Below, in pieces: positions 1,818-55,403 of a stretch of 64,000 bases of DNA; positions within the stretch are counted from its first letter, which is position 1, and each line of letters begins with the position of its first letter. A model generated the notes under the pieces. The model was given only the letters and a program-made list of their open reading frames with translations, was not told the origin of the DNA and searched no databases. The DNA comes from Eledone cirrhosa (taxonomy: Eukaryota): assembly GCA_964016885.1 (NCBI GenBank), contig OZ024741.1, positions 345,092,001-345,156,000 of the forward strand, given 5' to 3'. The position numbers and the translations under genes were made by a program.

Positions 1818-3492
1818 TACGATATTAAACAAATGGAAACTATATTTATAAAACCATATTTATTTCATTATACATATTTCAGTGATACCATATTAAAAAT
1901 ATGGCATGCCTTCGTCAGATAAAATACAATATATAAACAGTTTTATAAATAATTTTGACGTACCATAAATATAAGCGACCATTAAGATAGGAAGCTGGCT
2001 TGGTAGTGAAGTGTTTATAATTATTTAGTTATAGTGTTAAGCACAGTTAGAAAGAAAGACGGAGAGAAAGAAGCAATGTATGTAAAGAAAACCAGAGAGA
2101 AATAGAGAGAGATATAGGGGAGAGAGAAAGAAGGAGGAGGTGAAAAAAGAGAGGCAACCGAAGGCAACAGATGAATAATAATAATTCACCATACAAATAG
2201 AGAGATTTAAGAGAGAGGGAGTACAGTAATTATTTAGTTATAGTGTTAAGCACAGTTAGAGAAGAGACGGAGAGAAAGAAAAAAATGGAGATGAAGAGAA
2301 AACAGAGAGAAAAAGAGAGAGGTGGGAGGAAAAGAAAGAGGGAGAAAAAATAATAATAATTATATAGAGGGAGGTGAAAACCAAGAGAGAAATAAGAGAG
2401 AAACATGAGAGGCAAAATCAAAGCGACAGATACATAAAACTTCATCATATATAGAGAGAGAGGAGAAGAAAGAGCCATATCTAGAGAGAGGGATGATACA
2501 GTTACATCTTTACGTCATGTCATATCAATTTGAATTATCAATTCATGTGAACTGGGTAATAGAATGTAAATATCAATATTCATGAATGAGACATAGATAT
2601 ATAATGTGTGAAAATAATTTTGCTCAATAATGACCATATGTTTAGTTTAAAACTCTGAGGTCAATGTACCAAAATCTGAGATAAATCTTCAAAAAATTAC
2701 CCTATTTATAAAAATACGGAGATATATAAGTATATATATATATACGCATATGCACTTTCTGAAAAAAGAAAAAGAGAAAGTTATGTCAAGCTCTAGTCGA
2801 TAATATAGACATACACATGACTTTACGTGATCAACTCTATAATTTCTTGTGTCATAAAAAAATTTCCTTGTGTTATAAAAAATTTCACTATATATATATA
2901 TACATAAAAAGTAAACGATTAATATTCATGCCCCCACACATATGTTTATCGTTCATGTATATAATATTATGCATATCTGTAACATATACAGAACTATACC
3001 CACATTTATATATATATATATATATGTACATATAAGATATCTGCGTGAGTATTCCAGCATATTGAGCAACATTATTTTCACACATTATATATCTATGTCT
3101 CATTCATGAATATTGATATTTACATTCTATTACCCAGTTCACATGAATTGATAATTCAAATTGATATGACATGACGTAAAGATGTAACTGTATCATCCCT
3201 CTCTCTAGATATGGCTCTTTCTTCTCCTCTCTCTCTATAATGGTCGCTTATATTTATGGTACGTCAAAATTATTTATAAAACTGTTTATATATTGTATTT
3301 TATCTGACGAAGGCATGCCATATTTTTAATATGGTATCCCTGAAATATGTATAATGAAATAAATATGGTTTTATAAATATAGTTTCCATTTGTTTAATAT
3401 CGTATATCTACTCCAAAAACTTGTCGAGTGCTTTATATCGATTATAAAATATTTACTTGTTGCAACCCAACAATTTTAAATAAAACTTTTGC
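1818..3492. repeat. Composite inverted structure with family H hammerhead arms
   Basis: 1818-1983 is the reverse complement of 3238-3403, and ~2450-2630 is the reverse complement of ~3057-3237. (TA)n on both flanks. Confidence 0.8.
3299..3354 (+). ncRNA. Type I hammerhead ribozyme-like motif (family H)
   Basis: CTGACGA, stem II GGCATGCCATATT/AATATGGTATCC, then GAAA-TATG-TA. Stem I is weak and AT-rich. Confidence 0.55.
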
Positions 3493-3574
3493 ATATATAT
3501 ATATATATATATATATATATATATATATATATATATATATATATATATATATATATATATATATATATATATAT

Positions 3575-4065
3575 ACTAGCCGAATTACCCGCGCCTTGCT
3601 GCGTTTCACACATTTCTTTTTGTAAGAAAATGATCATTGATTTTAAATCAGTGATATAATTTATGGAGAAAAACTCTACATTTCAATATTACTCAATGTA
3701 AAATGTAATGCATGAAAAATTGGAAAACATTATTTTTTGTAATATATCAAATCAAAATTACATTATTAAATATTATTCTTATTTTGTTTCTTGTAAATAA
3801 TTTTTTAATTCAAAACTTTTGTGAATAGGCATCATATCTTGTCATTTACCTATGGTTGAAATATCATATAAATCGAAGCGAAAAAATTTTCAACGATGTA
3901 AGAAAATTTGTGCCCCTGGGGAACCCTTTGATTAAAATGAAATATACTTATCTAAGTACCCTGGGCAATGTAGTTTCAGAATATATATGCTTGTGGGGGG
4001 AGGGTCTATCTCCAAAATCATAGGCGTAGTTCGTGAACAAACAAACAGACAGGAATACAACTTTA
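3575..4065 (-). mobile_element. Non-autonomous Helitron-like element
   Basis: On the minus strand it ends in a GC-rich segment plus CTAG|T (ACTAG at ~3575) and begins TATATAAAG...(GTTT/GTCT)n. Confidence 0.5.
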
Positions 4066-4133
4066 TATATATATATATATTACTCTTTTACCTGTTTCAG
4101 CCATCCGGCTGGAATTGGTGCTCTAAAATAGCT

Positions 4134-4612
4134 ATATATATATGAATGTATATATAGTGTATTTTGCAATACACTGTATGCTTAATTAAAAGCATTTTGA
4201 AGACCTTATGCTATTGTTTTAGAGTAGTGACAGTCTCACTTACTTTAATTTTCAGCAAACAGGGGAGATAAAGTTGACAAGACCCTGTTTCGCATTTATT
4301 GATGCTTATCAAAGCCAACTGCTCCTCCTGTTTGCTGAAATCATGGATGTTTGGTTCTTATAGAATTCTAGTAAATAATCTAGAATTCTATAAGAACCCA
4401 ACATCCATGATTTCAGCAAACAGAAGGAGTAGTTGGCTTTGATAAGCATCAATAAATGCGAAACAGGGATTTGTCATTTTTATCTCCCCTGTTTGCTGAA
4501 AATTAAAGTAAGTGAGTCTGTCACTACTCTAAAACAATAGCATAAGGTCTTCGAAATGATTTTAATTAAGCATACAGTGTATTGCAAAATACACTATATA
4601 TACATTCATATA
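4134..4612. repeat. ~480 bp fold-back palindrome with degenerate hammerhead-like motif in each arm
   Basis: Arms ~4134-4371 and ~4380-4612 are near-perfect reverse complements around an ~8-nt spacer. Each contains TTGATAA-GCAT(caataa)ATGC-GAAA-CAGG. Confidence 0.85.
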
Positions 4613-4974
4613 TATATATATATATATATTGGAGTAACATGTGCCCACACAACCGAGTTTGGTGTCAGAACGGAAAGCCTGTTAAGAAAGTAAATCCACT
4701 GTTCGATCTTCCAGAAACTTGACTTGTATACACTGCAAGCGGATTTTGTTGATTTGGGATTTACAGAAACCTAACTGAGACATTGCAAAATATTCGAAGT
4801 GATGGTCCAGGTTTATTATATATATGTGTATATATGTATATATATATATATATACATATATATATATATATATATATATATATATATATATATATATATA
4901 TATATATATATATATATATATATATATATATATATATATATATATATATATATGTATATATATATATATATATA

Positions 4975-53255: not shown

Positions 53256-53547
53256 GATTTCATATAAAAAACCTCGCTAAACTAATTCATCGCCGCTATA
53301 TATATATATATATATATATATATATATATATATATATATATATATATATATATATATATATATATATATATATATATATATATATATATATACATACAGG
53401 CACACATATATATATATGCACGTATCAGTTTACCGAACATTTATTATAATGTTCGCTCTGTTCGTTTGTAAACAAACGAACAGCCTGATTTACACCGTAC
53501 AGTGTTTAGGCAACCACGTCACCTTTTTGTTCAACACTGACACAGGA

Positions 53548-53590
53548 ACGATGTACTAGTTTCAAGCTTGTTAGCTATCGTCAGCACCGT
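53548..53590 (-). ncRNA. Minimal type I hammerhead ribozyme (family B)
   Basis: Reverse complement of 54025-54067. Confidence 0.82.
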
Positions 53591-54024
53591 ATACCTTTCT
53601 GCCAGATGGTTGAACGTCCGAAAGTATATACTTTCCTTATGAAAATTAACGGCTGAGCAGCCTAATTTGCATATCGAGTGAGTTCAGTCGGCCAGGCGCA
53701 CCGAAAACGATAAATGGAATAGAATGAAACGAATTTTCATTTCTCACTCTTAGTACGGCACTTACTTAAATGTAAGTATGTATGTATACGTACATACATA
53801 TATGTATACAGACGTACAGTAGCATGTATATATATATATATATATATATATATATATATATATATATATATATATATATATATATATATATATATATATA
53901 TATATACAGGCACACATATATATGCACGTATCAGTTTACCGAACATTTATTATAATGTTCAGCCGTTAATTTTCATAAGGAAAGTATATACTTTCGGACG
54001 TTCAACCATCTGGCAGAAAGGTAT

Positions 54025-54067
54025 ACGGTGCTGACGATAGCTAACAAGCTTGAAACTAGTACATCGT
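54025..54067 (+). ncRNA. Minimal type I hammerhead ribozyme (family B)
   Basis: ACGGTG-CTGACGA-T-AGCT(aaca)AGCT-T-GAAA-CTAG-TA-CATCGT. Confidence 0.82.
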
Positions 54068-55403
54068 TCCTGTGTCAGTGTTGAACAAAAAGGTGACGTG
54101 GTTGCCTAAACACTGTACGGCGTAAATCAGGCTGTTCGTTTGTTTACAAACGAACAAAGCGAACATTATAATAAATGTTCGGTAAACTGATACGTGCATA
54201 TATATATGTGTGCCTGTATGTATATATATATATATATATATATATATATATATATATATATATATATATATACATGCTACTGTACGTCTGTATACATATA
54301 TGTATGTACATATACATACATACTTACATATATATATGTATATATATATATATATATATATATATATATATATATATATAAGTATACAGAGATTCCTCAA
54401 TAATTTATACTAATAGAGATGGAATGGTGTCTGGTTCAGCTGATTGAATTAAAGTGAGGGCTGTAGTGCAATTACCATGGGTAAATTTGCAGATATGAAA
54501 TGCAGTCCAGGATAATAGCTCTAACATCAAAGCCGAAAATAGCTTTCATGAATCATACAGGTATTTAAGCCTAATCATTCTGTTGGTCTCTTAGACACTT
54601 GACAGCCAACGCCCAACTGTATCAGTCACTTGTCATTTAGGTACTGTTGCAGCCGGGACAGTAAATCTGTCGTGCACAAGGCAACATCTGTCCAAACTAA
54701 TGTCCCCACATTCACTCATAAATTTCTAAAATATCACTACAAAATGCTTTTATCAGTGAACACTACATGTAGTAACCTGTCAACGAAACACTTTTTGTTA
54801 TATCAAATATTTTATGTATTCCGGTTGTGTTGTATTTTGCACATACCATAAAAATGAACAAAAATATCAAAATTAGCTCTTTGGTTTCCTTGTTGGTCCT
54901 GGTCATTTTTCAATTACACCAATCAACTTGTGCAACACGTTACAACTTCAACAACAATCACAGCAACCAACTGCATATATGTTAGAATGGCAAGTACCAA
55001 CATTCCATCAAAATGTTCGCTAAAGCATTAACATTTTACATATATATGATATTGGAAATATGCACACTGTACACTAAACATGACGAACAGTAACACAATT
55101 ATAGAAGACTAGAATTTGTTTCCATACCCTGACGTGTGTGTGTGTATATGTGCATGTGCATATGCATACATTTATATGTATGAGTATATAAATATAAACG
55201 TGCAAACACAGACATGCTTACATTGACACAAATACACACATAGACATACACGTCACTGATAACTCTAATTTCTCACCATCCCCTTCCTTCCTTTTACACA
55301 TACATAGATTCACGCAGGCAGCAGACGTAAAGAGAGAGCAGTATGAGGTAGTCAAACTACTCCTCTCTCTTTACGTGTTGTGACAGAATCGCAGGAATGT
55401 ATA

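Follow-up and report, generated by a model that had tools for sequence, protein, structure and literature searches.

Head-to-head PLE and retrozyme insertions in Eledone cirrhosa nearly always carry one short and one long 3' end and probably arise by priming from both target strands

Head-to-head inverted insertions of PLEs and retrozymes recur within and beyond a 64,000-nt stretch of the Eledone cirrhosa genome (the window; contig OZ024741.1), and in 91 of the 94 pairs that we scored, retrozymes included, one arm ends at a short 3' site and the other runs on to a long one, so that a single arm carries a 3' tail. Priming from both strands, already raised in an earlier note on this DNA, is supported as the likeliest cause: in our judgement it is probable that the two cut strands each prime a separate cDNA from two fixed start sites on the RNA, the cDNA ends then being joined by short microhomology. 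The inverted copy, the one tail and the (TA)n target have been published before, and it is the near-strict one-tail rule that the present data add.

Six loci in the window are inverted pairs, with the left arm on the minus strand, the right arm on the plus strand and (TA)n lying at the outer end of each arm or close to it (Table 1); hammerhead cores sit within the arms and point outward. The earlier note described this arrangement correctly, although its 'always' was too strong, as the window also holds an unpaired family-A end at 1062, an unpaired hammerhead element at 18516-18700 and tail-to-tail arms around (TA)n at 10887-11165 and 52081-52237. Nor are the arms mirror-equal, since one arm of each pair always has a 3' tail. 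At locus 2 the (TA)n is present but lies about 30 nt outside the left arm, which stops near 4112, and locus 6, previously bounded at 53392-54330, extends from 52024 to 54318, the (TA)n at 53297-53392 being a microsatellite internal to the family-C unit that hosts a nested insertion. This insertion comprises a 76-nt inverted copy of its flank (52165-52240), a Neptune-like endonuclease ORF on the minus strand (52389 to about 53238) that lacks a 3' end, and a plus arm consisting of tail only (about 53239-53296). The 1315-nt TG..CA insertion that splits the left arm of locus 3 falls outside the mirror-pair grammar. The arms of locus 4 overlap by 2 nt, while locus 5 is an 11.5-kb palindrome with equal 5.7-kb arms and a centre that holds a 9-nt copy of nearby sequence; its minus arm contains a 5'-truncated RT-GIY-YIG ORF (26568-28496) and its plus arm a pseudo-LTR from 34016 with a long-stem-II hammerhead-like motif. 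No RNA dataset covering window positions 3560-4800 is listed, which has no bearing on expression.

Table 1. Features of the window; family and hammerhead assignments are predicted from sequence.
Feature	Position	Strand	Remarks
Locus 1, family A (Hydra-clade 3' UTR and pseudo-LTR), tailless arm	1820-3063	-	hammerhead core 1918-1876
Locus 1, family A, tailed arm with internal deletion	3060-3492	+	hammerhead core 3304-3346; 82-nt tail 3411-3492
Locus 2, retrozyme D (~320-nt unit), tailed arm	4112-4371	-	hammerhead with U3-A8 core
Locus 2, retrozyme D, tailless arm	4380-4607	+	10/233 aligned sites differ between arms
Locus 3, family A, tailless arm	8788-10231	-	two pieces, 8788-8855 and 10171-10231
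Later TG..CA insertion in left arm of locus 3, LTR-like	8856-10170		4-bp target duplication
Locus 3, family A, tailed arm	10215-10429	+	hammerhead core 10243-10284
Locus 4, retrozyme B (466-nt unit), tailed arm	18722-19478	-	1.6 units
Locus 4, retrozyme B, tailless arm	19477-21214	+	3.7 tandem units, four hammerheads
Locus 5, family E (Hydra-clade PLE), tailed arm	22636-28501	-	134-nt tail 22636-22769
Locus 5, family E, tailless arm	28508-34230	+	ORF 28513-30441; long microsatellite-rich 3' UTR
Tailed 3' end of an older, related E type, following locus 5 in tandem	34228-35496	+	
Locus 6, retrozyme C (~484-nt unit), tailed arm	52024-53960	-	two pieces, 52024-52128 and 53393-53960
Nested insertion in internal (TA)n of retrozyme C	52165-53296		Neptune-like
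Locus 6, retrozyme C, tailless arm	53956-54318	+	hammerhead core 54031-54056

The bias in orientation is confirmed beyond the window. Opposite-strand neighbours no more than 6 kb apart, counted among the listed copies of six hammerhead-bearing families, were head-to-head in 108 cases against 6 tail-to-tail (80 divergent and 4 convergent among the 442 matches listed for families A-E; 28 and 2 among the 100 listed for the Neptune-like family), and a SINE-like control gave 2 divergent, 2 convergent and 11 same-strand neighbours among 100 matches listed. Among these listed copies the two orientations are far from equal in number, and the systematic production of palindromes in this genome is supported. 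Many of the copies listed have no partner within range. A sample of 40 evenly spaced 10-kb stretches of the genome suggests, as a rough figure, one TA-flanked inverted pair per ~18 kb. Targeting of (TA)n by the head-to-head insertions is likewise supported, and the start sites of families A and E have a TA-like match of 3-5 nt to the target; a self-complementary tract is not needed, however, given a B pair inside (CAT)n (L071) and an E pair in a non-(TA)n target (L172). Target duplications are unreadable within (TA)n, and L172, the one unique-target case examined, has a 13-bp duplication with matching sequence at both ends.

The window loci appear to be the pseudo-LTR ends of two autonomous Hydra-clade PLEs (families A and E), three tandem retrozymes (B, C and D) and a nested Neptune-like fragment. 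Families A and E exist in thousands of copies and insert into (TA)n, and their translations, compared with the motifs in PMC8557442, point to the Hydra clade: RWR and DKT are both present, R replacing the K of the RWK-type motif, as are the CxCX5C linker and the CxxC and CxH that flank conserved E and N, and CCHH is absent. A copy with an open 813-aa ORF (L200) has the RT followed by a C-terminal GIY-YIG endonuclease, as expected of that clade; the Atlas clusters nearest to this ORF carry HTH_animal (25-31%) and further ones GIY-YIG and RVT_1, and a Pfam scan of the PLE ORF, run locally, gave no match. Hammerheads are also shared with the published clade. The units differ in length, at 4.2 kb for A and 7.1 kb for E against the published <3 kb, because of their long 3' UTRs. 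Family A, which had been taken for a ribozyme parasite, is instead the pseudo-LTR of an autonomous element. The fragment at 52389-53238 is Neptune-like by its motifs, with a CX4CX2C linker (Neptune, CX2-5CxxC) and C..C..H..H in the endonuclease, matching CCHH, and its family has a hammerhead-like core of its own in the 3' UTR. The short non-coding tandem units of B (466 nt), C (484 nt) and D (~320 nt), each with a type I hammerhead, mark them as putative non-LTR retrozymes. Retrozyme C was considered as the pseudo-LTR of the Neptune-like element and rejected, since other Neptune-like copies run on into their own 3' end.

The proposal of one PLE machinery for autonomous elements and retrozymes alike is not supported. 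Each of the two Hydra-clade families, and likewise the Neptune-like family, has an ORF, a hammerhead and two 3' ends to itself, and blastn of retrozymes B, C and D against the pseudo-LTRs of the PLE families with their own ORF found no similarity; because the loci belong to different PLE families, retrozymes and a nested Neptune-like fragment, no single machinery is demonstrated.

The family A hammerhead is predicted from its core and covarying stems: pairing in stems I-III reaches 91% over 10 copies, stem II shows 10 double changes, and pairing falls to 35-52% when the stems are slid as a control. The family E candidate, taken alone, is less certain; the core, stem I and a palindromic stem III are present, whereas stem II, at ~100 nt, sets it apart from the published Hydra clade (PMC8557442) and its closing pair is imperfect. 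The hammerhead hits among the best 150 of 378 Rfam matches are limited to the five copies of family B (HH9, 38.6 bits, E 3e-6, below gathering). A search at gathering level gave a tRNA and nothing else, and miRNA matches at the E-value level were rejected as hairpin artefacts. Single-sequence folding of five short hammerheads was mostly no better than for shuffles (z -1.7 to +0.6), which leaves motif and covariation, rather than energy, to support them.

The pairs show the published inverted structure of PLEs, in which a truncated copy lies inverted at the 5' end and a single end has a tail. One short and one long 3' end were found in 45/47 pairs of family A, 22/23 of E, 12/12 of B, 8/8 of C and 4/4 of D, with tails of ~35-134 nt that fall about evenly on the left and right (21 and 24 in A, 12 and 10 in E). 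The three exceptions are L171 and L176 (long/long) and L184 (short/short); outside the 94 scored, L034/L035 and L201/L202 are short/short. The earlier note missed this rule, which is the most informative feature of the pairs.

Arm lengths, with the long pairs mapped on natural reference copies, are often unequal. Of 27 long A pairs, 17 have a tailless arm that exceeds its partner by >100 nt, and by as much as 4.7 kb, while in 10 it is the tailed arm that is longer; at window loci 1 and 4, too, the tailless arm is the longer. In L311, L303, L011 and L136 the tailed arm is tail only, without any mirrored part. Junctions overlap by -4 to +7 nt in 20 of the 22 long pairs viewed, mostly by 0-7 nt. 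Where short E pairs are concerned, the longer arm begins at +1 to +5 of an initiator-like site in 15 of 16, and three E loci and one A locus have a non-genomic G before +1, a position held by C in 45 of 47 read-through copies; against this, family A arms form a further cluster 50-110 nt upstream of where the RNA is proposed to start.

In the mechanism that we propose, the GIY-YIG endonuclease would cut both strands of an AT-rich target with a stagger of ~13 nt, and each 3'-OH would anneal over 3-5 nt of TA-like sequence to one of the two sites in the pseudo-LTR, short or long, the tail being the RNA between these sites. Each cDNA would then proceed towards the 5' side of the RNA and stop independently, one primed in the 5' pseudo-LTR stopping at the first base of the RNA, before the 3' ends of the two anneal and each primes the second strand of the other. 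A two-site protein complex on one RNA would be the simplest reason for one short and one long end. Hammerhead cleavage is probably no part of the priming step, because the cDNAs pass through the cleavage site. All evidence for double priming comes from fixed insertions, whose arm lengths and identities may since have been blurred by deletions at the palindrome centre or by gene conversion from one arm to the other.

The published alternative (PMC3846280) is self-priming, where a single nick primes one cDNA, or an antisense RNA folds back, and the strand forms a hairpin and copies itself, nuclease resolution then trimming one end to the short site. The loops of 2-30 nt in many short pairs would fit, as would the near-identity of arms (median divergence 0.6% in A and 0% in E, against 7.9% and 2.1% to other loci, a contrast that double priming fits as well) and the 76-nt inverted flank copy at 52165-52240, which resembles fold-back at (TA)n; the equal arms and templated centre of the 11.5-kb palindrome read like snap-back synthesis and count against double priming. 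A tail-first cDNA, however, cannot yield a longer tailless arm, one begun at the tailless end has no source for the tail, mirrored sequence is altogether absent from four pairs, and kilobase loops closed by 0-4 nt are implausible; the E centres L183, L192 and L154, with no loop and TA-only overlap, are too tight for a hairpin primer. The unequal arms, tail-only arms and short junction overlaps therefore favour two joined target-primed cDNAs, and they contradict fold-back as the general route that the earlier note had allowed, unless half of the loci had large one-sided deletions. As the general explanation self-priming is unlikely, and it is probably a minority route.

Host repair offers a different origin, in which perfect palindromes or single copies come first and hairpin-capped breaks, cruciform cutting or centre deletion then make or reshape the mirror. 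Palindromes are unstable, and internal deletions in single arms (window locus 1; L321) agree with such reshaping, but it leaves unexplained the use of two family-specific 3' ends once each, the intact target duplication and the arms that end at an initiator-like +1 with an extra G, and the SINE-like control has no such pairs; we consider this origin decidedly unlikely. Two independent insertions in opposite orientation into one (TA)n tract are very improbable and largely refuted: tracts are reused, with tail-to-tail neighbours around one tract at L003 and at window 10887-11165, yet such reuse gives tail-to-tail pairs with a (TA)n centre, seen in only 3 of 52 groups of the 40-stretch sample. 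Independent insertions also predict mixed subfamilies, whereas the divergence between the two arms of a pair is below the family median in 41/41 A and 23/23 E pairs (the nearest copy at another locus often equals the partner, which is strictly closer in 9/41 and 8/23), and they predict 50% mixed ends rather than 91/94. An assembly or library artefact from fold-back chimeric reads has hardly any probability, for although long near-perfect inverted repeats are a known artefact type and read support was seen at the 34016 joint and not at the centre of the 11.5-kb palindrome, the divergence between arms is 0.1-4.3% at four loci of the window, arms hold later nested insertions and follow a family-specific tail rule, and the strand-switch joint at 34016, the recurrent E centre, occurs in raw short reads of two other samples (4 reads/2 starts and 7 reads/5 starts).

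Double priming of this kind works like twin priming yet is not the LINE-1 form, in which the second site is internal and random, nothing is mirrored and only a minority of insertions take this course. In the PLE pairs, unlike L1, neither site varies, the same stretch of RNA is usually copied into the two arms, and this seems to be a main route of insertion. Pieces of one RNA that do not overlap, as in L1, occur in few pairs only (L309, L310, L311, L303, L011 and L136), most arms overlapping. With twin priming (PMC2837659) the pairs share an inverted 5' part, probably the priming by both target strands and, in the one unique-target case examined (L172), a target duplication. Published PLE insertions (Craig et al. 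2021, PMC8557442, Fig. 2; Adineta Penelope, PMC3846280) likewise have an inverted 5'-truncated copy adjoining the 5' end, mostly head-to-head with a tail at one end, in microsatellite or AT-rich targets with short target duplications; they were described by example and as 'often', with a 30-40 bp tail, where we have counts, and were explained by self-priming or nuclease resolution. The retrozymes resemble published non-LTR retrozymes (PMC7229834; bioRxiv 10.64898/2026.07.22.740005) in their non-coding 320-484-nt tandem units, type I hammerheads and PLE-rich genome, and differ in that their arrays stand head-to-head and bear the one-tail signature of PLEs. The main text of the former lacks the word 'inverted', which the latter has a single time, in the title of a reference.

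The closest biochemical parallel is the purified Poseidon PLE PAc (Frangieh et al. 2024, PMC11167929), which cuts and extends both strands, uses uncleaved RNA with two internal start sites that bound the tail, and is predicted to form a dimer. Start sites there did not differ between strands and had no homology to the cut DNA, which speaks against our scheme and differs from the TA-like match in A and E; inverted insertions are not discussed in the available part of that paper. We put forward tentatively, as possible rather than probable, that endonuclease-bearing PLEs normally integrate by double priming: a two-site complex, asymmetric in build, would hold one uncleaved RNA, the short- and long-site cDNAs, primed from the two target strands, would prime each other's second strand, the tail would equal the site spacing, pseudo-LTR mini-palindromes would be copies of the first ~350 nt of capped mRNA, and retrozymes would carry the same two-site signal.

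The origin of tandem and inverted PLE insertions was named an open task in PMC8557442, and double priming would explain this long-known insertion shape. The unequal arms, together with the one-short-one-long rule, speak against self-priming as published and make a sharp prediction, per target molecule, for the existing in vitro assay. The one-tail signature on three retrozyme families is direct structural evidence for movement by PLE-type proteins. The abundance of inverted pairs is relevant to repeat annotation and assembly checks and, at the rough density estimated here, double priming could supply much hairpin RNA and rearrangement-prone DNA; if double priming is indeed their normal route, PLEs would have given rise to roughly 10^5 inverted pairs across the genome.

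It has been possible to assign each of the six loci in the window, all head-to-head inverted pairs of hammerhead-bearing insertions with outer ends in or near (TA)n, either to a Penelope-like element (PLE) family of the Hydra clade (A and E) or to a retrozyme family (B, C and D), as listed in the table below. Full copies elsewhere (L220, L324) show family A to be an autonomous element's pseudo-LTR: they open with an initiator-like start and a hammerhead, followed by the short end, the 82-nt tail and the long end, and then the ORF. The proteins of both A and E carry RWR, DKT and CxCX5C and lack CCHH, which are the marks of the Hydra clade in PMC8557442. 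Among the retrozymes, the C unit is 67% alike to the B unit across ~240 nt, and an octamer-like motif, exact in C and with one change in B, lies upstream of the hammerhead in both (window positions 53664 and 19922); a promoter role for it is our guess. Nearly all of the 30 D copies viewed (window 4437-4480, L039-L068) have a palindromic stem III and a hammerhead core with U3-A8, not C3-G8, a swap that would be expected to keep the tertiary pair of the hammerhead.

Features of the window
Feature	Position	Strand	Details
Loci 1, 3			family A
Locus 2			retrozyme D; non-coding tandem units, ~320 nt, type I hammerhead
Locus 4			retrozyme B; non-coding tandem units, 466 nt, type I hammerhead
Locus 5			family E; 7.1-kb unit, 813-aa ORF (L200)
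Locus 6			retrozyme C; non-coding tandem units, 484 nt, type I hammerhead
Old imperfect palindrome	699-929		230 nt, 75%, right end at (TA)n
TG..CA insertion, LTR-like	8856-10170		4-bp target duplication
Piece related to TG..CA insertion	51415-51897		another interrupts a D copy (L041)
Hammerhead-like motif	10863
Tail-to-tail arms around (TA)n	10887-11165
RT fragment after tail-to-tail arms	within 10860-11552	+
Unpaired element between two (TA)n tracts	18516-18700	-	hammerhead-like core, ~27-bp closing stem, fold z -8.4
Large decayed mitochondrial insert	~38000-50200
tRNA matches	39603-39670, 50092-50159		in mitochondrial insert
ATP synthase A match	43143-43508		inside mitochondrial insert
Decayed ORF pieces, further Hydra-type PLE	59291-61607	-	DKT, CxCX5C
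Homeodomain exon	61780-62163	-	Pfam E 3.5e-12

In the stretch at 10860-11552 a further PLE family has probably inserted twice, at a single tract, and the homeodomain exon places the region probably in or beside a homeobox gene. The mitochondrial insert also holds frames that we take to be cox1- and nad-like.

The assembly containing the window (3.0 Gb, AT-rich, 1796 contigs) holds 7648 exact-motif matches to A on both strands, 5201 to B, 11837 to C, 58 to D, 7266 to E and 25602 to a Neptune-like family. Neighbouring matches no more than 6 kb apart were counted among the first 100 listed matches of each of A, B, C and E on contig 1, and among 42 of the 58 D matches (contigs 1-4); the lists comprise exact matches and, on contig 1, only its start. 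The divergent bias and outer (TA)n proposed in an earlier note were both borne out: among the matches listed, families A-E gave 80 divergent, 4 convergent and 96 same-strand neighbours (mostly tandem units), and the Neptune-like family 28, 2 and 2. A SINE-like repeat (136,679 exact matches) gave 2, 2 and 11 among those listed, and this same-strand excess (11/15 close neighbours) suggests that close inverted pairs have been lost, which is opposite to what the PLEs show. In an independent sample of 40 evenly spaced 10-kb stretches, (TA)n lay within 200 nt outside both arms in 23 of 52 inverted-repeat groups, against a background of 0.20 per side, and at the centre in three; exactly one arm was flush with it in 18 of the 23. 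The 22 non-redundant groups cover 6.3% of the sample, spacers counted, which scales to a rough ~1.6 x 10^5 inverted groups in the genome, PLE-family assignment having been made for only part of them. As to assembly artefact, raw paired reads from two other samples, which carry the same species label as the best-matching read source, include 4 and 7 with an opposite-strand joint at 34016, the recurrent centre of E; these reads cover that joint rather than the full span of any of the six loci. The best-matching read source shared only 0.43 of sampled words, and the samples may therefore be divergent individuals or a close species.

Every family has two fixed 3' ends, short and long, separated by a tail, and a pair typically combines one of each: 45/47 pairs in A, 22/23 in E, 12/12 in B, 8/8 in C and 4/4 in D. 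These counts exclude pairs with an end unresolved or beyond the fetched DNA (B L071, L078, L086/L093; C L099, L127, L128, L216), one unfetched D pair, and E L180, L187 and L195, each continuous with a complete tandem copy; two of these end tailless farther out. Outside the scripted set there are two more short/short pairs (L034/L035, L201/L202) and three more mixed-end pairs (L197/L198, L203/L204, L205/L206). Directly after the 3' ends in tandem copies, the sequence is TA-like, for 5 nt at both ends in A and ~3 nt in E, and the primer can therefore pair with the RNA. The E pair in L172 lacks (TA)n and has a 13-bp target duplication, so (TA)n is the target and not an added tail.

How, then, does the mirror form? 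The tailless arm extends farther 5' in 17 of 27 long A pairs and the tailed arm in 10; 15 of the 27 come from ORF-match loci, a selection that forces one long arm, not which, and the set omits L320, L323, L325, L326 and L328 (ends unresolved), while the partner of L309 lies outside the stretch. Four tailed arms (L311, L303, L011, L136) consist of tail alone, and those of L309, L310, L311 and L303 end 5-15 nt 3' of the short site, as though the same RNA had this site occupied. The starting points of B arms within the unit are unrelated, and junction overlaps range from -4 to +7 nt in 20/22 long pairs, the remaining two being +18 and -25. For 15 of the 16 short E pairs, the longer arm ends between +1 and +5 of an initiator-like site that lies where hammerhead stem I begins. 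A non-genomic G is present there in three loci, as would be consistent with a copied cap, and the centre is TA-only with zero loop in three. In all 41 A and all 23 E pairs, the two arms resemble each other more closely than the family median. Together, arm lengths, tail-only arms, junction overlaps, 5' stops and arm identity fit two target-primed cDNAs from one donor, copied from one RNA or from two, which would be joined end to end.

Evidence against comes from the 11.5-kb palindrome of locus 5, with its equal arms (7 substitutions and 12 gaps between them) and a centre of 14 nt that includes a 9-nt copy of nearby sequence when set against the uninterrupted element; it fits snap-back and equally a pair of cDNAs that ran off the end of a single broken RNA. 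The earlier note had offered fold-back beside priming from both strands; the evidence from the other pairs, taken together, does not fit fold-back in its tail-first form. We regard double target priming as the likely route, and its single-RNA, two-site version as a more tentative proposal.

In the literature searched on PLEs and retrozymes (PMC8557442, PMC11167929, PMC3846280, bioRxiv 10.64898/2026.07.22.740005, PMC7229834, PMC4209133), we found neither a count of paired short and long ends nor inverted arrays of retrozymes, nor a model that explains PLE inversions by double priming, and Arkhipova 2006 and Evgen'ev and Arkhipova 2005 may hold more. Head-to-head pairs are a real, widespread and known PLE architecture, found here in new Hydra-clade and retrozyme families, and the new part is the quantitative evidence on mechanism.
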